From an uncultured Thermococci archaeon (GTDB taxonomy: Archaea > CAYQAE01 > CAYVLA01), in assembly GCA_964549615.1 (NCBI GenBank), contig CAZJVP010000088.1, positions 25,868 to 89,867 on the forward strand: a DNA stretch of 64,000 nucleotides. Direction: 5' to 3'. The translations under genes and the position numbers were made by a program. This document shows positions 1-51,895 of the stretch, piece by piece. The notes below the pieces were generated by a model, which searched no databases, was not told where the DNA came from, and saw only the letters and a program-made list of their open reading frames with translations. The first letter of the stretch is position 1; each line of letters starts with the position of its first letter.

Positions 1-108
1 GTTTCGGGATTCAAGGATTCAAGGGAAACCCTTATTTTCCCCTCCGAGACAGGTCAACATCGTCGCGGACGGGAAGCCGATTCCGCAACATCGAGTTGAG
101 GGAATGTC

Positions 109-213
109 ATGGTGAAGCGTAGAAAGGGAAGCGGAAGCAGAAGCGGAAGCGGAAAAGATAAGAGAAAGCTGAACCCGAGGAGCAGACGGCGTCCCGCCAG
201 ATGGAAGGGATAG
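109..213 (+). CDS. Putative small highly basic peptide (34 aa, MVKRRKGSGSRSGSGKDKRKLNPRSRRRPARWKG)
   Basis: ATG 109 to TAG 213, below the ORF-track cutoff; purine-rich GAGGGA just upstream; TATA-like CCTTATTTT near 30-38. Confidence 0.4.
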   Translation: MVKRRKGSGSRSGSGKDKRKLNPRSRRRPARWKG

Positions 214-255
214 CCGGGGAGATCGGCTCGCCGGGCTCGCCCGGGTCCCCACTTT

Positions 256-657
256 CTACCACTTCTCTACCCTAAGCCCGGGTATTCTCTCGAAGTGCCG
301 TGGGTTTCCCGTCAGAAGGGGAAGGTTATTCCGGATGGCGGTGGCTGCCAGATAGACGTCCTGTATGCCGATCTCTTCACCCGACCTTCTCAGCCTTGCA
401 GCCATCTGGGCTGCCAACTTCGCGGCCTCCTGATCAAGGGGCAAGACGACGAATGCACTTAGGAAGTCCTCCACATCGCACACCACCTCAGCCAGGCCCT
501 CATCTTCGTACTTGAGGTGGATCCCGAAGAGGAATTCAAAAAGCGTCACAGCGCTGAGCGCGTGGGGTCCCGACCTATCCAAAACGGAGGCCTTCTTAGC
601 AACTTCGGGACCTCCTTTGTCGAGATCTATCAGAACGGAGGTGTCAAGCAGCTTCAT
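256..657 (-). CDS. vapC: VapC-type PIN-domain ribonuclease toxin
   Basis: MKLLDTSVLID start, TLFE, QDVYLAATA and LLTGNPRHFERIPGL PIN motifs; overlaps the upstream antitoxin. Confidence 0.92.
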   Translation of the reverse strand: MKLLDTSVLIDLDKGGPEVAKKASVLDRSGPHALSAVTLFEFLFGIHLKYEDEGLAEVVCDVEDFLSAFVVLPLDQEAAKLAAQMAARLRRSGEEIGIQDVYLAATAIRNNLPLLTGNPRHFERIPGLRVEKW

Positions 658-874
658 CTTGCATCTTCTCGGCCGATCGTCTCTGCATCTCTGCCAAGTG
701 TTGCCTGATTGTTCTCCAGTCCTCCCGTGTGAGGAGTCCTTTACCCATGACGTCCGATATGGCAGGCCTTGCCTGCATGAGTCTTCTTATTAGATCGGTG
801 AAGGACTCGTTCTGCCTCTTTCTTCTCTTGAGGGCCACGTACACGTCGTCTGCAATGGACACGTTCCTTGCCAC
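644..874 (-). CDS. vapB: Archaeal VapB-like antitoxin (DUF217-like)
   Basis: RNVSIADDVYVALKRRKRQNESFTDLIRRL motif, 76 aa, coupled to vapC. Confidence 0.88.
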   Translation of the reverse strand: MARNVSIADDVYVALKRRKRQNESFTDLIRRLMQARPAISDVMGKGLLTREDWRTIRQHLAEMQRRSAEKMQDEAA

Positions 875-903
875 ATATACATATGTGCACCCATAGAATA
901 AAA
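872..903 (-). promoter_or_regulatory. vapBC promoter with inverted-repeat operator
   Basis: Inverted repeat CACATAT-ac-ATATGTG (872-887) over the start codon; TTTTATT TATA-like box ~25 nt upstream of the start. Confidence 0.55.
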
Positions 904-1054
904 TGCTTTCCTAGCATCACCGCCGTAGATCGGCTACGCTCGTGCGGCCCGAGGAGCCCAAGCCCAAGCCCCATATCATCAAACCAAGGCCCCTCGTGCC
1001 ATGTTGAGATCCGTTCCACCTAGCAGTCCCCTTCGTGGCTCGCGGGCATGGAAG

Positions 1055-1195
1055 CGCTGGGGAGGGGATTTGAACCCCTGATGCCTTGCGGCAACTGACT
1101 AGCCGCTCCAATCCGGATTAGCAGGCCTGCGCTCCAGATCCATCAGCGCCCTAACCAGATTGCCCGTGGATTGCTCCACCCTAGGCGACCCCAGC
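1055..1195 (-). tRNA. tRNA-Ser(GCT) with three introns (15/16, 29/30, 37/38)
   Basis: Acceptor GCTGGGG/CCCCAGC with discriminator G, T-arm AGGGG-TTCAAAT-CCCCT, long variable arm TGCC-GCAA-GGCA, anticodon GCT (plus 1120-1122). Removing 1160-1180, 1127-1143 and 1101-1118 gives an 85-nt class II tRNA. Confidence 0.93.
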
Positions 1196-1220
1196 TTGTC
1201 TCGCACCTCGCCCGGGGTCG

Positions 1221-1234
1221 AAATAAATCTTTCC
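1221..1234 (-). promoter_or_regulatory. BRE/TATA promoter of tRNA-Ser
   Basis: GGAAAGATTTATTT on the minus strand ~26-39 nt upstream of the tRNA 5' end. Confidence 0.6.
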
Positions 1235-1266
1235 GAGTTGAAGCGTGGGTCGGTCGGATCGGTTCA

Positions 1267-1699
1267 TCACATCTCCGAGGGAAACAACAGCGTGTCCTCG
1301 AACCCTTTGGATCGAATGAAAGATCGCAGCTTGGCGTCGACGCTCAGCAGCTTCAACCCCCAAGCTCCTCGAGCTGGCGTAGAGCAAGTTGTCGATCATA
1401 TCCTTGTGGCCGGCCGAGTATACCTGAAGAGCATGCAGGTAGGCCTCAGACTGCTCCTCGGCAATGAGGTACACGCCCCCCTTCAGGATACTGTTCAGCC
1501 CCTGCCCAAACAATCCCAGGTCAAGCCGACCATCGGCCGCGAATCTTGCCCCGGTCCAAAGTGCTTCCAGAATCGAGAAGCGAGAGCACCAGATCTCCGC
1601 TGGGTTGGCTTTCAGCTTCTCCAGTCCTCGTCTGACTTCATCGCCGGCGTCTATCCCCATCGAGGGCAAGATGAACGGGGTATCAAGGAGGACTCTCAG
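1267..1699 (-). pseudogene. vapC: PIN-domain (VapC-like) toxin, frameshifted at a G5 run
   Basis: LRVLLDT...SILE...DMIDNLLYA PIN motifs; the natural C-terminus LKLLSVDAKLRSFIRSKGFEDTLLFPSEM* lies in another frame after TTGGGGGTTG (plus 1357-1361); probable CTG start overlapping the antitoxin stop. Confidence 0.8.
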
Positions 1700-1934
1700 T
1701 GTGTCTTGTTTGCTCTTCAAGGCTGATTGCCTCGACTTCATCGGGGTTGATCTTGGCAAACTTCCTTCCCTCCAGAGCCAGTTTCAACGGATCCCTGATG
1801 ATCTCCATTTTGATGGTGTCGCCATCGACCGTGAGTTGCACCTTCTCGCCTTCCTCAAGTCCGAGCGCTCTGACTATGTTTCTCGGCAGATAGAGGGCGC
1901 TCTTCCTCCCGATTCTCACAGTTTCAGTTACCAT
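1683..1934 (-). CDS. AbrB/MazE/SpoVT-family antitoxin
   Basis: VRIGRKSALYLPRNIVRALGLEEGEKV motif; GGTGA RBS before ATG 1934. Confidence 0.9.
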   Translation of the reverse strand: MVTETVRIGRKSALYLPRNIVRALGLEEGEKVQLTVDGDTIKMEIIRDPLKLALEGRKFAKINPDEVEAISLEEQTRHTESPP

Positions 1935-2076
1935 GCAACTCACCTGACAGAAGCGGTTAGTTCATTCTCATTAGTTTTTCCTGACAGAAAGCGTCATACC
2001 AGAATTTCCACCGTTATTCAGGAGAACGGCTAACCCTGAAGACACCGACCGTCAAGGGCCTTCGAGAAACCCAGGA

Positions 2077-3858
2077 TCAGTAGAACTCGAGCTCGACAAG
2101 CTCGCCCTGCTCGTCGTATACTCCTCTGAAGAGCGCAACCCTGCCGAACAGCTGCTCGCTGTACCGGCCCATCTCGCCCCGGATGATCTTCTGTAGCACG
2201 AGGACCGCCGTCTGCGTGCCCTCGCGCCCGAAGCCACCGACCGCAAGACGGCTGTAGCCGGCATCCACCGTGCTCTCCTCGCAGATGAGGGAAAGAAAGC
2301 CCCACTCCGACAGCGGCCCCGCCAACCTCGGGATCAGGGTGAGCAACTCCTCTTGGGTTGCGTTCCTGAAGAACCCGGGAGCCAGGACCCTGGGGGCGGT
2401 GCGGTTGTCCAGAATCCGGAGCAGGCCCTTCTGCGCAACGTAGCCGCACAGGTAGTTCGAATCTGGGTCCCCGATCCCGATCAAGTTCCTTTGGTTGTAG
2501 GTGTACTGAACCGAGTAATAGGACCCAACCTTCGACGCGACGGTGGTGTGGTTGGTCAGGTTGACCTGCACGCCCATCTCCCAGAAGGCGTTCCGCGTCG
2601 CGTTTGACCAGTTGCCCATCTCTTCGGCGGTGTAGTTCGCCCACCCACCCTCCGATCCCACGGATATGAGGGTCCCATTGCCGAAGATCGCCGGCACGTT
2701 GTACAGGCTATATTGCCTGAGCGTCAGAGTTCGAAGCGTGCTGTACTTTTTCTCCTTTGGGGTGAAGTACTCGTACTGCAGGGCGACGTTCCTGCTGCCG
2801 TTCGCGGAGAACCTGATCTCCAGCTCCTCATCGATCACTTCGCCCGCCCCGATGGTTGCGTGCGTTATGTTCCCGCCCACGATCTCCGCCTTGCCGCTCT
2901 GAAGCCGGAGCGTGAAATTGGTGGCGGGCGCCGTACCCTGGTTCCAGATCCTGATCGGCACTATGGCCGAGTAGTTGCCGTCCTCCCTGAGGGTCGCCGC
3001 GGGCTCCAGCAGAAGCTCGACGACCTTCACCTCCGGCTCCTCAACCCGCCGCGACACCCACCTTAGCATGTTCAGCAGGAGCTTGTTGTTGTCGAATCCG
3101 TCCAAGAACCGGCTGCTCCACAGGTTGTTGTCGCCGATGCACGCAACCTTCCCCTTGCCGTAGGTTGACACCGCCGCAACGACCTTTGCGCCAACCTCCT
3201 CATCCGGATCGAGCGCCTGGTCGCCGTCGACATCGGACCAGGCATCCTCCGAGGTCCACGCGATGGGGGTCGCGTTGCCGGAAATCTTCAGCGAGCATCC
3301 GGAGTGGTAGCTTATGCTCTTTATCCCCTCGGTCACGTTGTGCTCGGCAAACCTGGTTATCATGGGCCAGTGTGGGTAGCGCGGATCCGCCAAGAAGGGT
3401 GAGGCAGGATCGCACACAAGGTCGGCCTGGAACTCGATCCCGAACTTGGATGTGAGCTTGTTCACCGCGGTCCGCGCCCAGGGCTCAAACCTGCGGCTGC
3501 CGGACTGTCCCGCCACTATCAGGCCGTTGCCGGCCGCCACGTAGTCGGCGAACATATCAACGTCGTACTCAAAATCATCTGAGTCCCTAGGCGTTATGAG
3601 CAGGACGGTGACGAAGTCCGTTAGGTTGTCGGGGTGTACGGCACTGACCCCGGTATAAGGGCTTAATAGGTGGGCCGTGAAACCTATCGACCTGAAGGAG
3701 ACGGCCGCGTGCCAGTAGTCGAAAAGGCTCAGCTGCTCTTCCAGGTGCGTCTCAACGAACACGGCCGTCGGACGTTCGACGGAGACCGTTGGCATGGATG
3801 ATGCAGTAAGCAGCCCGACCAAGCAGATGGAGACGAGCCATCTGCGAGCTGCGGCCAG
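2077..3858 (-). CDS. Secreted/surface protein with GIFT/DUF4350-like, CARDB-like and S-layer-like C-terminal domains
   Basis: Hydrophobic N-terminal signal; YVAAGNGLIV, HNVTEGIKSI, YGKGKVACIGD, DNNKLLLNMLRWV; IWNQGTAPATNFTL; many NxS/T sequons; start uncertain (CTG after the ileS stop). Confidence 0.7.
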   Translation of the reverse strand: MAAARRWLVSICLVGLLTASSMPTVSVERPTAVFVETHLEEQLSLFDYWHAAVSFRSIGFTAHLLSPYTGVSAVHPDNLTDFVTVLLITPRDSDDFEYDVDMFADYVAAGNGLIVAGQSGSRRFEPWARTAVNKLTSKFGIEFQADLVCDPASPFLADPRYPHWPMITRFAEHNVTEGIKSISYHSGCSLKISGNATPIAWTSEDAWSDVDGDQALDPDEEVGAKVVAAVSTYGKGKVACIGDNNLWSSRFLDGFDNNKLLLNMLRWVSRRVEEPEVKVVELLLEPAATLREDGNYSAIVPIRIWNQGTAPATNFTLRLQSGKAEIVGGNITHATIGAGEVIDEELEIRFSANGSRNVALQYEYFTPKEKKYSTLRTLTLRQYSLYNVPAIFGNGTLISVGSEGGWANYTAEEMGNWSNATRNAFWEMGVQVNLTNHTTVASKVGSYYSVQYTYNQRNLIGIGDPDSNYLCGYVAQKGLLRILDNRTAPRVLAPGFFRNATQEELLTLIPRLAGPLSEWGFLSLICEESTVDAGYSRLAVGGFGREGTQTAVLVLQKIIRGEMGRYSEQLFGRVALFRGVYDEQGELVELEFY

Positions 3859-3877
3859 CGCTCGTGCAAATGACGCC

Positions 3878-6800
3878 CTACTCCGCCTGCTTGATCGATA
3901 TGACGTAGCTGTCCTCCTCCAGATTCCACGTCTTCTTCCTTGCCCTGCCCCCGAGGGGCTCATCCAGCCTTACCCTCCTAGCTCGGGTCTCCGCCGCTAT
4001 GTAGTCCAGCTTGTCCCTGACCTTCCCAAGCTTGTCGGCTGGCCCCCCGATGGAGACCTCGATGTAGTCGTTAACCTTGAGGTCCATCTCCTTCCTCATC
4101 TCCTGGATGCGCCTCACCAGCTCCTTGGCGAGGCCTTCGGCCACAAGCTCGTCGCTCATGGTGGCATCGACCACCACGACCCCCAGCGGGCACTCCGCCT
4201 CCGCGTGGTTGGGCGGGAGCTTCCTGACGAAGGAGACGTCCTCCCGATCTATCCTGAACTTCCTTCCATCAACGGCCAGCTCGTAGACCCCTTCCGCGTC
4301 AAGCCGAGCTTTGACATCGCCGGCCTTCGCCTCCGCCAGGCTCTTGGCGACGAGGTCAGCATCCGATCTGAACTTCCTTCCGAGGTTCGCCATCCGGGGC
4401 CTCACGGCCATGCCGAGCGCCTCCTCTGAAACCAGCTCGACGGACTTTGCGTTCACCTGTTCCGCGAAGATCCCGCCCAACGACCTGACGGCTTGGCAAA
4501 CCTCCGGGTTCACGGACGACACGAGCACCCTAGCGACCGGATGCCTCAGCCTGACTCCCGCCTTCTGCCTTGCGGCGAGCGCACATTCAACCAGACCATG
4601 GATGGCCTCCATCCCACGCTCCAAGCCGGAGTCGATCAGACCTTCCTCAGCCTCGGGCCAATCCTCCAAGTGCACGCTCTCAAGCGGCGAGCCGTCCCTC
4701 ATCATCCTCTGATAGATGATCTCGGTCAGATGGGGCACGATCGGCGCCATCAGGCGGAGAAGCCGGCCGATGGCGTAGTGAAGGGTGTAGTAACATGCCA
4801 GCTTGTCCGGGTCCTCGGCCTCTACCCATGTCCTCTCCCTCGCCAGCCTGACGTACCACCTGCTCAGCTCTTCCAGGATGAAGCGCTGCAGCCCCCTGGT
4901 GACGTGAAGGAAGTTCATCTCCTCCATGCCCTTGGTGACTTCCCGGACGAGGCTGTTGACCCTCGAGAGCAGCCACCTGTCCTCGGCCCGAAGGCTTGCC
5001 CTCACGTCCTCGATTGAGACCTTGCCGACGAAGCCGTCAAGCTCCATGTAGGTGGACGCAAAGACGCAGACGTTCCAGAACACGTTCAGCATCCTCTGCA
5101 CGGTCGTGAGTTCTGCGAAGCTGAACCTTAAGTCCTCCCATGGCAGCGTGGCCCAGAGCAGGTAGTAACGGAACACGTCCGCGCCGTACTTCGCCACGAC
5201 CTCGTCCGGCTCCACGACGTTGCCCAGCGACTTCGACATCTTCCTGCCCTCGGGATCGAGGGCAAACCCGTGCATGAGCACCTTCTTGTAGCAGGACTTA
5301 CCGAAGGTGATGACGCTCGCAGCCTGCAAGGAGTAGAACCACTTCCCGACCTGGTCGGAGCCCTCTATGATCAGGTCGGCCGGCCAGATCGAAAGGGCCT
5401 TCGGGTCGGACGGATAGCCGAGCGAGCTCCAGGACGCTATGCCCGAGTCGAACCAGACATCCACTATGTCCGGAACCCGGCTCATCGTCCCGCCGCATTT
5501 GCACTTCAGCTTGATCTCGTCGACGTTCGGCCTGTGGGGATCGAAATCGTCGGGATCGATCTTGGTCGTGGCCAGACTTGCCAGCTCGTCGAAGGATCCG
5601 ACGACGGTCATGTTCCGGCAGCTCGGACAGGTCCAGATCGGCATCGGTATGCCCCAGTACCTGTTTCGGGAGAGACACCAATCCCCCACGTACTGGACGC
5701 CGTTCTCGTACCTCTCGGAGATCCAGGCCGGGACCCAGGTGACCTTTGCGTTCTCCTCGATGACCTTGGACTTGATCTTGCTGATCTCAAGGAACCACTG
5801 CTCCCTGGCCATGAAGATGAGCGGGGTCTGGCATCTCCAGCAGTGCGGATAGCTGTGGAGAATCGTCTCGTAGTGGACGTAGTAGCCGTTGCGCTTCAGA
5901 TCCTCGACCACGACGGGATCTGCATCCTTGACGTACATGCCCCTGTATTTCCCACCGTCCTCAGTGAACCTCCCGCTTGCGTCAAGAGGGGAGAAGATGG
6001 GGGCCCCCACCGCCCTCCCGACCTCGAAGTCCTCCTCGCCGTGCCCAGGGGCCGTGTGGACGCAGCCCGTGCCTTCCTCCAGCGTGACGTACTGTGCGGC
6101 AACGACCCGGTGGAACTCGTTCGCCCACTCCCTCTGCTTCGGCACCTGCTCGATGAGCGGATGGATGTACCTGAGGCCCTCGAGCTCTGAGCCGGCCACG
6201 GTCTCGATGATACTGTAGTCCTTGATCCCGACCTTCCGCATGACGGTTTCGACCAGCGCCTCCGCCAAGATCCAGATCTCTCCTCCCACCCTGACGCGCG
6301 CGTAGGTGAACTCCGGCTTGACCATGACCAGCATGTTTGAGGGCAGCGTCCACGGCGTCGTGGTCCAGACAAGAATGTACTCGTCCTTGCGATCCTTAAG
6401 CTTGAACTTCAGGTATATGGATGGGTCTTCCCTTACCTCGTACTCACCGCGAACCTCGTGCTCCGCCAGCGCTGTCTCGCACCGGGGACACCAGTGAACG
6501 ACCCTGAGGTCTTTGACCAAGAGGCCGGCCTCGTGGGCCTTCTTGAGGGAGTGCCACCCGGCCTCCATGTATCGGGGCATGAAGGTTATGTAGGGGTCGT
6601 CCCAGTCCATCCACACCCCGAGGCGCTTGAACTGCCTCGTCATGGTCTCCAGGTGGCGCTTGGCGTAACTGCGGCAGGCCTCTACGAAGTTGCGCACGCC
6701 AATTACGTTCTCGATGTCCTTCTTCGATTTCAGCTTGAGCTCCTTCTCAACCCGGACCTCTATGGGCAGGCCGTGCGAGTCCCACCCAGGCTGCCTGCGG

Positions 6801-7039
6801 ACGTTCTTGCCCCGCATCGAGAGGTAGCGCAGGACGGTGTCCTTCACGATCTTGTTCCAGGCGGTTCCGATGTGAATGGTCCCGCTGCAGTACGGCGGGC
6901 CGTCCAAGAAGTAGTAGACGGGCCGCTGGCGGTTCTTCTCCTTCGACTTTCCATAGATGTCGTGCTCGGCCCACCACGACTGTATCTTTTCCTCAAAGGC
7001 CGGTAGGTCGAGCTTTTTCGGCAATGCTTTCACGGACAT
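3878..7039 (-). CDS. ileS: Isoleucine--tRNA ligase
   Basis: DGPPYCSGTIHIGTA (HIGH), WTTTPWTLP editing domain, KMSKS. Confidence 0.97.
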   Translation of the reverse strand: MSVKALPKKLDLPAFEEKIQSWWAEHDIYGKSKEKNRQRPVYYFLDGPPYCSGTIHIGTAWNKIVKDTVLRYLSMRGKNVRRQPGWDSHGLPIEVRVEKELKLKSKKDIENVIGVRNFVEACRSYAKRHLETMTRQFKRLGVWMDWDDPYITFMPRYMEAGWHSLKKAHEAGLLVKDLRVVHWCPRCETALAEHEVRGEYEVREDPSIYLKFKLKDRKDEYILVWTTTPWTLPSNMLVMVKPEFTYARVRVGGEIWILAEALVETVMRKVGIKDYSIIETVAGSELEGLRYIHPLIEQVPKQREWANEFHRVVAAQYVTLEEGTGCVHTAPGHGEEDFEVGRAVGAPIFSPLDASGRFTEDGGKYRGMYVKDADPVVVEDLKRNGYYVHYETILHSYPHCWRCQTPLIFMAREQWFLEISKIKSKVIEENAKVTWVPAWISERYENGVQYVGDWCLSRNRYWGIPMPIWTCPSCRNMTVVGSFDELASLATTKIDPDDFDPHRPNVDEIKLKCKCGGTMSRVPDIVDVWFDSGIASWSSLGYPSDPKALSIWPADLIIEGSDQVGKWFYSLQAASVITFGKSCYKKVLMHGFALDPEGRKMSKSLGNVVEPDEVVAKYGADVFRYYLLWATLPWEDLRFSFAELTTVQRMLNVFWNVCVFASTYMELDGFVGKVSIEDVRASLRAEDRWLLSRVNSLVREVTKGMEEMNFLHVTRGLQRFILEELSRWYVRLARERTWVEAEDPDKLACYYTLHYAIGRLLRLMAPIVPHLTEIIYQRMMRDGSPLESVHLEDWPEAEEGLIDSGLERGMEAIHGLVECALAARQKAGVRLRHPVARVLVSSVNPEVCQAVRSLGGIFAEQVNAKSVELVSEEALGMAVRPRMANLGRKFRSDADLVAKSLAEAKAGDVKARLDAEGVYELAVDGRKFRIDREDVSFVRKLPPNHAEAECPLGVVVVDATMSDELVAEGLAKELVRRIQEMRKEMDLKVNDYIEVSIGGPADKLGKVRDKLDYIAAETRARRVRLDEPLGGRARKKTWNLEEDSYVISIKQAE

Positions 7040-31576: not shown

Positions 31577-32827
31577 ATGGATTCCAACAAGGTCGTTGTG
31601 ATCGGGCTGGGAAGGATAGGGCTTCCGAGTGCTGTCTGCTTTGCCCAAGCTGGTTTGGACGTCGTCGGTGTCGATGTGGACGAGGCCAGACTGAGAAGCA
31701 TACAGGCTGGAGAGGTCCATCCCCTAGAGCCCGGTCTCAAGGACGCTGTCGCAAGTTCCATCAGTTCGGGTAGGCTTCGGCTCTCCACCGCCCCCGAGCC
31801 AGCTGACGCGTTCGTCCTCTGCCTGCCCACTCCTCTGGACGAGGACCAGCACTGTGACCTCACCTACCTGGGCAAGGGGCTCGATGAAATTGCCAAGGTG
31901 ATCCGACCGGGAAATCTCATCGTCATCGAAAGCACGGTTCCGGTCCATACGACGCGCGACTTCGCGCTACCCCGGCTGAGGTCGGCGGGCGTCGACATCG
32001 ACTCCGTGCTAGTTGCCTACGCCCCAGAGCGGATCACGTCCGGAAACATGCTTGAGGAAATGCGCAAGGGCGACAGAATCATCGGCGGCATCACCAAGGC
32101 GGCCGCAGAGGCGGCGAGGGACCTGTACAGGGCCTTCGTATTAGGCGAAATCCTGCTGACCGACGCCTCCACCGCCGAGCTTGTGAAGTTGATCGAGAAT
32201 ACCTACAGGGACGTGAACATAGCCCTGGCCAACGAGATCGCCCTGTTCTGCGACAAAGAAGGACTGAACGTCTGGGAGGCGATCGCCCTCGCAAACCGGC
32301 ACCCGAGGGTGAACATACATACCCCAGGCCCTGGGGTTGGAGGCCACTGCATCCCCGTTGTGCCCCACTTCCTTGCCCAGGCAACAAAGCATAGCACGCT
32401 CATCCTTGCAGCCCGCCAGGTCAACGACTCGATGCCTAGGTACATCGCGAACCTCATCCTGAGGGAGGTCGCCGATCTGGAGAAGCCCAAGGTCGCGCTC
32501 ATGGGCGTCGCATACAAAGCGAATGCGTACGATCCCGTTAACAGCCCAGCCCTTCAGGTACGCGCATTCTTGGAGAAGGAAAAGCTGGAGCTTGTCCTCT
32601 GCGATCCACTGGTCCGCCAGACCGACCTTCATCTGGTCGACATTCCGGAGGCAATCGCCTCGGACTGCGTGGTATTCCTCGTGCCCCATAACGTGTTTAG
32701 ACAGATCAAGCCGGGCAAGCCAGTCAGGGGCAGGGGCACCGTCATAGATGCCGGAAACTGCATAGAGGCCGAGCAATGGGCGTCCCGGGGCTGGACGGTC
32801 AGGGGCTTTGCCAGGGGCAGGCACTAG
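31577..32827 (+). CDS. wecC: UDP-N-acetyl-mannosamine dehydrogenase (nucleotide-sugar dehydrogenase)
   Basis: GLGRIGLP, ESTV, PER, KLIENTYRDVNIALANE, PGPGVGGHCIP. Confidence 0.88.
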   Translation: MDSNKVVVIGLGRIGLPSAVCFAQAGLDVVGVDVDEARLRSIQAGEVHPLEPGLKDAVASSISSGRLRLSTAPEPADAFVLCLPTPLDEDQHCDLTYLGKGLDEIAKVIRPGNLIVIESTVPVHTTRDFALPRLRSAGVDIDSVLVAYAPERITSGNMLEEMRKGDRIIGGITKAAAEAARDLYRAFVLGEILLTDASTAELVKLIENTYRDVNIALANEIALFCDKEGLNVWEAIALANRHPRVNIHTPGPGVGGHCIPVVPHFLAQATKHSTLILAARQVNDSMPRYIANLILREVADLEKPKVALMGVAYKANAYDPVNSPALQVRAFLEKEKLELVLCDPLVRQTDLHLVDIPEAIASDCVVFLVPHNVFRQIKPGKPVRGRGTVIDAGNCIEAEQWASRGWTVRGFARGRH

Positions 32828-34005
32828 GGTTTCGCTCTGGCAAAGCTGATCATCCTAACCCTCCCCCGCTGGGCATCGACCTGAGCTATCACGAACTTCT
32901 TCTTCACGCTCGCCGCCAACCGGCCCGCCCTCACGATCTCGGTAGGGGTGATGCTGGAGGTGCTGGGGTAGACATGTATGAGGAAGGGGGCGTGGTCAAG
33001 CCCGGGCCCGTACTCATAGACCGCGAAGTCAACTCCGAATTTCATCCCGGACTTCACGACCAATCCGGAGTCCTTGAGCTTCTGGTACACTATGTACCTC
33101 TCACGGAAGTGAGGTTCGCTCAGCGCAGCCTTGGCCAGCTGGTCGACGCTCACTCCCGCTTCCCCGTCCTCAAGCCTTACCCGCCCTAGGCCTGCCAGGT
33201 AGAGAAGCTCGGTGAATGAGAGCATGATCGGCTTCTCAAAGTCCATGGAACGGGGCTTCCTTATCCCTATCGGCTTGCCGAAATAGCCCTCCCTGTAAAG
33301 GCTCAAGGCGCCAAGGGGGTCCCAAACCACGGCCATGGGGCCGACGATCTGCGCCGCGTCCTTGCGATCGGGCGAGTAGCGCACAGCAGGCCTCGTTGTG
33401 AATCTCTTCATCTCGTAGTAGGAGACCTCTCCCTCCTCGTCGACGAGTGCAAGATAGACCGCCTTCTTGAAGCGCCCTGCAATCGTGAGGACCCGTTCGA
33501 GCTCATCCAGCGCGATGCTCTGGTTTCTAGAGTACACCGCGACGAGGTGGGTGCAGGGCTTTCCGGGCTTCTCGAAAAACCAAAGGTAAGGCATCTCAGC
33601 CGTCCCCGCTTTCAGCCTGCGCCCCTTGCTCCTCATGTCTCGGTAGACCAGGTACTTGAGGAAGAACGATGCATCCGAGGCCAATCCCCTCTTCAGAATC
33701 GCTTGGAAAGGAATCTCCCTTCCGTCATCAACTATCCGCAGCACGCCGCGGCGTTGGAGGTAGAAAGCGGCGACGTCCGGCAGAAGCAACCCACCGTCCT
33801 CGGGAAATCCGTGATCCAACTCCACCAACGATCCCGGGCTCTCGACGAGGACCCCTTCCTCGACCAACTTCCCGGTGTAGGTTTCGACGATCTCCTCGGC
33901 CGCCTCTTCGCCCTCTTGGGACTCATCCAAGTCCGTCGGCTTTTCGAGCTCCTCCTCCAACTCTTCGTCAGAATCCTCAGGCAGGATCGACACCTGCATC
34001 ACCAC
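32824..34005 (-). CDS. endA: tRNA-splicing endonuclease, two-unit fusion (structural plus catalytic) with a CSL-like loop
   Basis: Unit 1 YLVYRDMRSKG...LVDEEGEVSYY lacks the triad; unit 2 GMKFGVDFAVY, DHAP, VKKK (Y/H/K); GYFGKPIGIRKP loop. Confidence 0.9.
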   Translation of the reverse strand: MVMQVSILPEDSDEELEEELEKPTDLDESQEGEEAAEEIVETYTGKLVEEGVLVESPGSLVELDHGFPEDGGLLLPDVAAFYLQRRGVLRIVDDGREIPFQAILKRGLASDASFFLKYLVYRDMRSKGRRLKAGTAEMPYLWFFEKPGKPCTHLVAVYSRNQSIALDELERVLTIAGRFKKAVYLALVDEEGEVSYYEMKRFTTRPAVRYSPDRKDAAQIVGPMAVVWDPLGALSLYREGYFGKPIGIRKPRSMDFEKPIMLSFTELLYLAGLGRVRLEDGEAGVSVDQLAKAALSEPHFRERYIVYQKLKDSGLVVKSGMKFGVDFAVYEYGPGLDHAPFLIHVYPSTSSITPTEIVRAGRLAASVKKKFVIAQVDAQRGRVRMISFARAKP

Positions 34006-51708: not shown

Positions 51709-51895
51709 CGGATGGGGCCGCCCGGATTTTCATGGCCTCTTCGGCCACTTTGAACCGGAGTCACGAGGTCCCGAACCTCGAAGGATGCCCTCAAAAGGAA
51801 TGGACCAGGCTACCCCACGGCCCCTTTTTTCTGCCCAATGGAACCTTGGCGGTGTATAAATCTTTCGAGATAGGGAAGGGCAAGCCCGTCTGACG

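Follow-up and report, generated by a model that had tools for sequence, protein, structure and literature searches.

Among archaea, three introns is the stated maximum for a single transfer RNA (tRNA) gene, and most of the cases given come from Pyrobaculum and Thermofilum (PMC4033280, PMC3218864). In the tRNA-Pro(UGG) gene of Pyrobaculum islandicum, the introns are placed at 25/26, 37/38, and 56/57 (Sugahara et al. 2007/2008, as cited in PMC4090602 and PMC4033280), and 29/30 appears among the non-canonical sites listed in PMC4090602. Multi-intron tRNA genes are now described as abundant in some Asgard genomes as well, where introns missed by tRNAscan-SE were added from structure drawings (PMC11291895), and for C. 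merolae the stepwise processing of multi-intron precursors is reported to have been shown (PMC3728597). Also named in PMC4033280 is the tri-split tRNA of Caldivirga maquilingensis, and a Hadesarchaea genome with increased tRNA gene disruption and a different type of endonuclease is mentioned in PMC5829648. Here, we describe a multi-intron gene in a 64,000-nucleotide (nt) stretch of DNA (hereafter the window) from an uncultured Thermococci archaeon (contig CAZJVP010000088.1, positions 25,868 to 89,867). Very probably, the minus strand at 1195-1055 of the window holds the functional tRNA-Ser(GCU) gene of this genome, which carries three short endonuclease-type introns at 15/16, 29/30, and 37/38. 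The three-intron layout is rare but known, and it is found here in a small, little-studied archaeal lineage. Some added interest lies in that lineage, in the triple layout being repeated in two tRNA genes (Ser(GCU) and Arg(UCU)), and in the pair of splicing endonucleases. A preliminary description of the locus had called triple-intron tRNAs rare and mostly reported from Thermoproteales-like archaea, in agreement with what PMC4033280 and PMC3218864 state.

Gene anatomy and the predicted spliced product

When the four exons of the gene (Table 1) were joined by their coordinates in a script, the 85-nt product was called as tRNA-Ser(gct) by ARAGORN and gave a full cloverleaf with every stem paired. 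This contains a 7-bp acceptor stem, a D stem (GCCU/GGGC), an anticodon stem with one G.U pair, G30.U40 (CUGGC/GUCAG), the anticodon loop CUGCUAA, a 15-nt variable arm with a stem, the T arm AGGGG-UUCAAAU-CCCCU, and a discriminator G (at 1055 in the gene, where CCA is not encoded). Also in place are the conserved tRNA nucleotides U8, A14, G18 and G19, and U33, together with the T-loop UUCAAAU. A long variable arm, G73, and a serine anticodon serve as identity elements of tRNA-Ser. All three were found in the spliced product, which has the class II features of a long (15 nt) variable arm with a stem, G73, and the anticodon GCU, and they also occur in the other Ser genes that we solved. The anticodon itself lies at 1122-1120 (minus), inside an 8-nt micro-exon (GCCUGCUA), and the mature tRNA-Ser(GCU) reads the codons AGC and AGU. 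The preliminary description had proposed a three-intron tRNA-Ser(GCT) on the minus strand, and all of its exon and intron coordinates and motif strings match the sequence; its three intron positions and the 8-nt anticodon micro-exon are borne out both by the sequence and by the ARAGORN call.

Upstream of the gene, a TATA-like A/T-rich element was noticed by eye, and its ATTT core is invariant in an alignment of four related genomes (see below). This element is likely to be the promoter of the tRNA-Ser(GCU) gene. Moreover, three sets of DNA contigs were aligned to 800-1500 of the window, and the best match carried the same gene, with no joint and no intron-free form, a comparison that is silent on expression.

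Table 1. Coordinates of the tRNA-Ser(GCU) gene, its parts, nearby features, and the two endonuclease genes (window positions unless a contig is given).
Feature	Position	Strand	Remarks
tRNA-Ser(GCU) gene	1055..1195	minus	141 nt with the three introns, 85 nt without
Exon 1	1195-1181	minus	15 nt; tRNA positions 1-15: acceptor 5' strand, D-stem 5' strand GCCU, A14 G15
Intron 1	1180-1160	minus	21 nt, at 15/16
Exon 2	1159-1144	minus	16 nt; positions 16-29: remaining D-loop, D-stem 3' strand GGGC, G26, C27 U28 G29
Intron 2	1143-1127	minus	17 nt, at 29/30
Exon 3 (micro-exon)	1126-1119	minus	8 nt, GCCTGCTA; positions 30-37
Intron 3	1118-1101	minus	18 nt, canonical 37/38
Exon 4	1100-1055	minus	46 nt: A38, anticodon-stem 3' strand GUCAG, 15-nt variable arm, T arm, acceptor 3' strand, G73
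TATA-like A/T-rich element, AGATTTATTT	1221..1230	minus	26-35 nt upstream of mature 5' end; read by eye
EndA of the window	32824-34005	minus	393 amino acids (aa); two PF01974 stretches and one PF02778
Second EndA	G000:C90:41466-42674 (locus L122:467-1675)	minus	403 aa, outside the window
Overlapping open reading frame	917-1111	minus	program-called
Overlapping open reading frame	1160-1726	plus	program-called
Overlapping open reading frame	1171-1467	plus	program-called
Overlapping open reading frame	1181-1759	minus	program-called
PIN-domain open reading frame	256-657	minus	downstream of the tRNA-Ser gene
Isoleucyl-tRNA synthetase	3878-7039	minus	further upstream of the tRNA-Ser gene

Conservation within the family and in the sister family

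To place the gene in its lineage, we refer to the genome of the window as G000, which together with G001, G002, and G003 forms one family (f1), with G004 representing a sister family (f2); these belong to a phylum-level group with five species genomes in our collection. The closest named records to the RadA protein of the window are from Candidatus Hadarchaeota archaeon (75-77% identity), with the next at 60%, and a literature search on Hadarchaeota tRNA introns found no relevant report for this lineage. In a BLAST search of the region against 41 genomes, full-length matches were obtained only in G000 and the three other family genomes, at 88-92% identity, and all three introns are in register in each of the four.

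Here, the exons and introns vary quite differently. Only 4 of the 85 exon columns are variable, two each in the D-loop and the variable arm, as opposed to 23 of the 58 intron columns (Fisher 2.9e-7, a value overstated by the kinship of the four genomes). Exon 1 and the micro-exon are invariant in all four genomes, exon 2 differs only in the length of the D-loop and in one D-loop base, and exon 4 differs in 2 columns, both in the variable arm. As for the variable intron columns, 15 fall in hairpin or loop regions, 5 are intron-side bulge nucleotides, and 3 are in the intron strands of the central helices, with none at all in the inner hairpin stems. Among the helix-strand changes, those from G-C to G.U in intron 2 and from U.G to U-A in intron 3 preserve pairing. 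Constrained exons combined with drifting loops and bulges are the pattern expected for bulge-helix-bulge (BHB) introns, and this argues against a decaying locus.

A covariance model was built from the four family genes and used to find the Ser(GCU) orthologue in G004, which carries a single 16-nt intron at 29/30, in a strict hBHBh' motif, and also yields G30.U40. The 29/30 intron of Ser(GCU) is thus present in all five lineage genomes, with those at 15/16 and 37/38 found only in the four f1 genomes. In G004, a complete set of three introns (26, 17, and 32 nt at 15/16, 29/30, and 37/38) is found in the gene for tRNA-Arg(UCU) (G004:C6:6221-6370 (-)), whose exons measure 15, 16, 8, and 36 nt, whose micro-exon is GCCUUCUA, and whose spliced product is called Arg(tct) by ARAGORN. 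The Arg(UCU) gene of G000 has only the 29/30 intron. The D-arm is almost identical in the Ser(GCU) and Arg(UCU) genes, which also have the start of the micro-exon in common. When copies of the three introns and their contexts were sought elsewhere in G000 with blastn-short, only the locus itself was returned; the best off-target intron match (E 0.05, contig C85) proved not to be a tRNA.

Intron motifs and tests against chance

At the exact junctions, each of the three introns shows 4/4 central pairs, with the predicted cuts lying two nucleotides into 3-nt bulges. In intron 1, the central helix is GCCU (positions 10-13) with GGGC, and the bulges are AG^G and AA^U; this intron has an inner hairpin (GUGGA-GCAA-UCCAC) and an outer helix of length zero (h = 0), and it can be classed as a relaxed HBh' motif whose GGGC copies the 3' strand of the D stem. 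Intron 2 has an outer helix (AGG/CCU), a central helix (GCGC/GCGC), and the bulges UG^A and AG^G. Its central helix can be extended by one U-A pair, which closes the 5' bulge, so that the 5' site UG^A edges a loop of about 10 nt. With a clean 3' bulge (AG^G) and no inner hairpin (h' of at most 1), intron 2 is of the relaxed hBH-loop class. In intron 3, the central helix is CUGC/GCGG, the bulges are UA^A and CU^A, the inner hairpin is UCC-GGAUU-GGA, and the outer helix is provided by the anticodon stem. Under the strict hBHBh' criterion, for which the outer and inner helices must each have at least 2 bp, intron 3 alone qualifies (h 3, h' 3). Such a strict motif is a substrate of all EndA types. 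All of the helix, bulge, and GUGGA-GCAA-UCCAC hairpin strings given in the preliminary description are found in the sequence. In local minimum-energy folds at 37 and 70 C, the motifs of introns 1 and 2 were recovered, and that of intron 3 appeared as a near variant.

How readily such motifs arise by chance was gauged in two ways. First, with the exons fixed, each intron was shuffled 20000 times. The BHB rule (a 4-bp central helix, 3-nt bulges cut after the second bulge nucleotide, and an outer or inner helix of at least 2 bp) was satisfied in 59, 835, and 1563 of the 20000 shuffles for introns 1, 2, and 3, respectively, and a motif as good as that observed was reached in 7, 149, and 63. Second, the 3.2-Mb genome was scanned in a BHB-aware manner, with an intact T arm and acceptor 3' strand as the anchor, from which the cloverleaf was walked and up to three candidate introns were skipped. 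From 456 T-arm anchors, 147 gave any solution. The Ser(GCU) locus scored 21.0 to 22.0, its top solution being the same three introns as in the preliminary description, and every one of the 28 anchors at 19.5 or above was confirmed by ARAGORN on the spliced product. The next anchor, at 16.0, is a tRNA-Asp (GTC) locus whose proposed introns are doubtful, though ARAGORN calls its spliced product Asp, and none of the 46 further listed solutions, all at 14 or below, was confirmed by ARAGORN. In an earlier and looser scan, which allowed introns of up to 130 nt, the separation was weaker (21.0 versus 19.0 for the best non-tRNA three-intron solution).

The only Ser(GCU) gene found and the tRNA set of the genome

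No other tRNA with a GCU anticodon was found in G000 among 35 RF00005 hits, the 456 T-arm anchors, and the matches of the covariance model. In fact, the locus scored 170.6 bits with this model, and the next among the matches listed in G000, the Leu(UAG) gene, scored 47.6 bits. A second intact Ser(GCT) gene elsewhere in the genome, which the preliminary description had named, together with the lack of a spliced product, as an observation that would speak against the locus, did not turn up in these searches. In the 16 open reading frames of the window that were counted, AGY accounts for 147 of 465 serine codons. As for the other serine isoacceptors of G000, that with anticodon CGA has no intron, that with UGA has one at 30/31, and Ser(GGA) (C81:55576-55695) has two, read by eye.

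The gene is readily overlooked, as the preliminary description had expected of standard callers. ARAGORN in default mode made no call at the unspliced locus, Rfam at gathering thresholds gave no match anywhere in the window, and the locus is absent from the 35 tRNAs that RF00005 finds across the genome. With Rfam relaxed to E<=10, the sole match on the unspliced gene was tRNA-Sec, at 15.1 bits versus a 47-bit cut-off. Run with introns allowed (aragorn -i), ARAGORN reported the locus as Thr(agt) with a 67-nt intron, a false call, and placed a second 'Ser(gct)' at C55:28852-28971, which is in fact a tRNA-Leu(UAG) with discriminator A and two introns. As run here, ARAGORN and the Rfam tRNA model both overlook the only Ser(GCU) gene found, and in an annotation resting on callers of this kind the AGY codons would be taken, wrongly, to be unreadable. 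Of the open reading frames that overlap the gene (Table 1), the one at 1181-1759 (-) was tested against Pfam and had no match.

A census of the genome covered 38 tRNA regions, 29 of which were solved and 9 unsolved; six of the solutions are doubtful because of over-long variable regions, and the counts are lower bounds. Among the 29 solved regions, 9 are intron-free, 15 have one intron, 4 have two, and 1 has three, this being Ser(GCU), the only three-intron gene of the set. Intron sites in the set include the D-loop, 22/23, 29/30, 30/31, 32/33, 37/38, and the variable/T region. Going by length, just two other tRNA regions, Ala(CGC) and Tyr(GUA), have at least 45 nt extra; the former carries two 28-nt introns, and in the latter two introns were solved, with 7 surplus nt in the variable region.

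Some further observations were made along the way. The tRNA-Leu(UAG) gene (G000:C55:28852-28969 (+)) contains introns of 17 nt each at 30/31 and 37/38 as well as a 7-nt anticodon micro-exon (GCUUAGG), and its canonical intron acquires an outer helix only once the other intron is removed. In the genes for Thr(GGU) and a Met(CAU) (G000:C51:111395-111468 (-) and G000:C79:44442-44537 (-)), the T-loop reads UCCGAAU by eye and not UUCRAAU, with C at the U55 position. A tRNA-Asp(GUC)-like region at G000:C78:980-1074 (-), which adjoins a 16S rRNA gene fragment, was unsolved by the script, and it has an insert in the D-arm, and its apparent 5' end is not paired by the acceptor 3' strand. Within the window, the 112-nt region at 51713-51824 (-) is called 'tRNA-Gln(ttg) 51756-51824' by ARAGORN, probably a miscall. 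On removal of 15 nt from the D-arm (51799-51785) and 22 nt from the T-loop (51748-51727), it becomes a 75-nt tRNA-Pro(cgg) by ARAGORN, identical at 67 of its 75 positions to Pro(GGG) of the same genome; the T-loop intron (51748-51727) has a perfect BHB, and that in the D-arm has 4/4 central pairs with almost no flanking helices.

Splicing enzymes

Two loci in G000 encode splicing endonucleases (PF01974), and the EndA at 32824 of the window to which the preliminary description had pointed is a real gene and one of these two. Its chain consists of a beta-like structural unit (approximately residues 65-200, with an NF007085 match at 110-200, E 1e-8) fused to a catalytic alpha unit (216-393). The catalytic unit is closest to the A. 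pernix alpha subunit (3p1z_B, E 2.4e-43; residues 216-376 against 10-171), and in an ungapped stretch of this alignment K250 corresponds to K44, the specificity-loop lysine of A. pernix EndA, so that the alpha unit carries a loop lysine of the crenarchaeal type. In that enzyme, the K44 loop is described as conferring broad specificity (PMC3488258, PMC6379350), and 3P1Z is listed as the A. pernix (alpha-beta)2 EndA in Table 1 of PMC6379350. Here, the beta-like unit is instead fused into the same chain and not separate. By its sequence, the EndA of the window is a candidate for the enzyme acting on these introns.

The second EndA aligns end to end with the epsilon2 EndA of ARMAN-2 (4fz2_A, E 2e-73; residues 29-403 against 22-387), and by this alignment it is a collinear three-unit chain (alphaN-alpha-betaC). 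Its catalytic residues Y251/H264/K295 align to Y236/H251/K282, and the loop residue K168 to K161, with the numbering of the ARMAN-2 enzyme taken from PMC3488258. The three-unit ARMAN-2 enzyme is represented by PDB 4FZ2/9W2K (PMC3488258, PMC12397907), and its loop lysine is said there to confer the cleavage of relaxed motifs (PMC3488258); the epsilon type is given in PMC5829648 as known only from ARMAN-1/-2 and Mancarchaeum. Within the family, the second EndA is full length in G002 and G003, and in G001 it is divided between two contigs (66-76% identity), and both endonuclease types are kept in the three other family genomes. With the G000 protein as the query, no three-unit EndA was found in the sister-family genome G004, and matches at 35-40% were found in two small genomes (G037 and G014). 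We found no mention in the literature consulted of a fused beta-alpha endonuclease paired with a three-unit chain of the ARMAN type. Moreover, G000 encodes RtcB (PF01139; G000:C30:11741-13048, 607 bits). This predicted repertoire, two EndA proteins with hallmarks of broad specificity and RtcB, fits the relaxed introns 1 and 2.

Evidence against the assignment and alternative readings

Several observations weigh against a functional gene spliced at the three sites given. Intron 1 lacks an outer helix and intron 2 an inner hairpin, so that both need a broad-specificity enzyme, and the intron-1 helix of G003 ends in a G.A pair on its outer side. In the minimum-energy fold of the whole 141-nt precursor, the three BHB motifs are absent, and the only elements retained are the acceptor, the T arm, and the hairpin of intron 1 (z-score -2.5). 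The assembly comprises 104 contigs, and a second Ser(GCU) copy could lie on unassembled DNA. A search for RNA datasets matching 1-5000 of the window listed none, and splicing and its order are inferred from the DNA. Lastly, a one-base shift of intron 2 to 30/31 removes the G.U wobble from the anticodon stem and is allowed by all four family genomes.

This last point leads to the alternative that survives best, namely the same gene with intron 2 excised at 30/31 and a mature stem CUGAC/GUCAG with a Watson-Crick A30-U40 pair, which we nonetheless regard as unlikely. In all four family genomes and in the sister-family orthologue, the first base of intron 2 is A and that of the micro-exon is G, so that excision at either 29/30 or 30/31 yields an 85-nt tRNA. 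However, at 30/31 the 3' cut would fall on the border of bulge and helix instead of two nucleotides into a 3-nt bulge, and no register provides two 3-nt bulges four base pairs apart; the preliminary description had rightly remarked that this placement offers a perfect anticodon stem but no BHB. The comparison with other genes also favors 29/30. In the G004 orthologue, the strict hBHBh' motif sets the cuts at 29/30, again with G30.U40, and G30 is found in each of the seven other Ser(GCU) genes solved (G004, G021, G034, G011, G007, G039, and G029). Two intron-free Ser(GCU) genes read CUGGC, which is the stem predicted for 29/30, and the tRNA-Leu(UAG) of the same genome has G30.U40 as well.

It is highly improbable that the locus is instead a decaying or non-functional tRNA-like sequence, with the true Ser(GCU) on unassembled DNA or made in some other way (for example, as a split tRNA). 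The locus is known from DNA only, the assembly is fragmented, and 9 of the 38 tRNA regions were unsolved by the script, all of which would leave room for such a reading. Yet the exons are strongly constrained across four genomes with the introns drifting, the cloverleaf is fully paired, the serine identity features are all in place, inspection by eye revealed no GCU tRNA in any of the nine unsolved regions, and the marker-gene completeness of G000 is 99.46%.

No more probable is the same gene with a 21-nt intron 1 shifted by five bases toward the 3' end (GGGU/AUCU as the central helix, CUA/UAG as the outer helix, and AGGGUGGUUA as the D-loop): it appears in the relaxed scan of G000 with 4/4 central pairs and a 3-bp outer helix, but G.U accounts for two of these four pairs, the second central pair is replaced by A.C in G001 and by U.C in G002, the conserved 5-bp hairpin GUGGA/UCCAC (variable in the loop, constant in the stem) would be broken, and the analogous intron of the G004 Arg(UCU) gene lies at 15/16 with the 3' end GGGCAA. 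Overall, the comparative data prefer the intron placements of the preliminary description to these alternatives.

Proposed path of splicing

For the gene with introns at 15/16, 29/30, and 37/38, we propose that transcription would proceed from the A/T-rich element about 30 nt upstream and that the precursor would present three BHB-like motifs. In that of intron 1 (HBh'), the intron GGGC would substitute for the 3' strand of the D stem, and in that of intron 2 (hBH-loop), the intron GCGC would pair with nucleotides 24-27. A splicing endonuclease would then cut two nucleotides into each 3-nt bulge, at six sites in all, and RtcB would join the exons. Two nucleotides of the micro-exon belong both to the outer helix of intron 2 (CCU, 31-33) and to the central helix of intron 3 (CUGC, 32-35), so that the two motifs are mutually exclusive and would call for sequential steps of cutting and joining. 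Stepwise processing was reportedly described for archaeal substrates by Tocchini-Valentini and co-workers in 2009. In the primary transcript, the full motif of intron 3 would be possible, with its outer helix using C31, G30, and the last base of intron 2, and intron 2 would gain its outer helix only once CUGC is freed. The most likely order would therefore have intron 3 removed before intron 2, with intron 1 independent of both. Removing intron 3 first would also prevent the release of the 8-mer as a free fragment.

More tentatively, and with rather low confidence, the 15/16, 29/30, and 37/38 introns may be a unit that spread between tRNA genes within the group of five genomes, the overlap of its motifs imposing the order of splicing and the two endonucleases dividing the work. 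The triple set is present in Ser(GCU) of f1 and in Arg(UCU) of f2, with the other gene of each family having only the 29/30 intron.

Comparison with known systems

The locus adds a conserved three-intron tRNA gene, the stated archaeal maximum, for a deep-branching lineage. With its 8-nt anticodon exon and two overlapping BHB motifs, it is also a compact natural substrate for the study of splicing order, and the co-occurrence of two broad-specificity types of endonuclease bears on the proposal that intron motifs and endonuclease architecture have evolved together.

Like the multi-intron tRNA genes of Thermoproteales, the present gene has no more than three short BHB-flanked introns, at one canonical and two non-canonical sites, with relaxed motifs (hBH and HBh') and a genome-encoded endonuclease that has a specificity loop. 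In contrast to them, it belongs to another lineage, the phylum-level group described above, and its genome encodes a fused beta-alpha chain and a three-unit chain in place of separate alpha and beta subunits. Moreover, unlike the intron transposition of Thermoproteales, no copies of the three introns were found in other tRNA genes of this genome. In the tri-split tRNA of Caldivirga maquilingensis, short pieces are separate genes and are joined in trans through BHB motifs, whereas here the four exons lie within one 141-nt gene.

Closer in one respect are the Asgard groups Atabeyarchaeia and Freyarchaeia, for which an intron-rich tRNA set outside Thermoproteales, non-canonical sites, and many multi-intron genes are described (PMC11291895), though these belong to a different phylum. 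As regards the enzymes, the second EndA differs from its ARMAN-2 counterpart in being encoded in 3-4 Mb genomes of a lineage that is not DPANN-like, beside another endonuclease gene. Finally, the C. merolae case in PMC3728597 likewise involves three BHB introns (there in the D-arm, at 37/38, and in the T-loop), with intermediates that reveal the order of removal, and this ordered removal speaks for a stepwise processing of multi-intron precursors. In that eukaryotic system, as described there, the intron in the anticodon arm is the last to leave and each BHB can fold independently, whereas in the tRNA-Ser(GCU) precursor two motifs overlap on the 8-nt exon and the canonical intron would be the first of the two to be removed.

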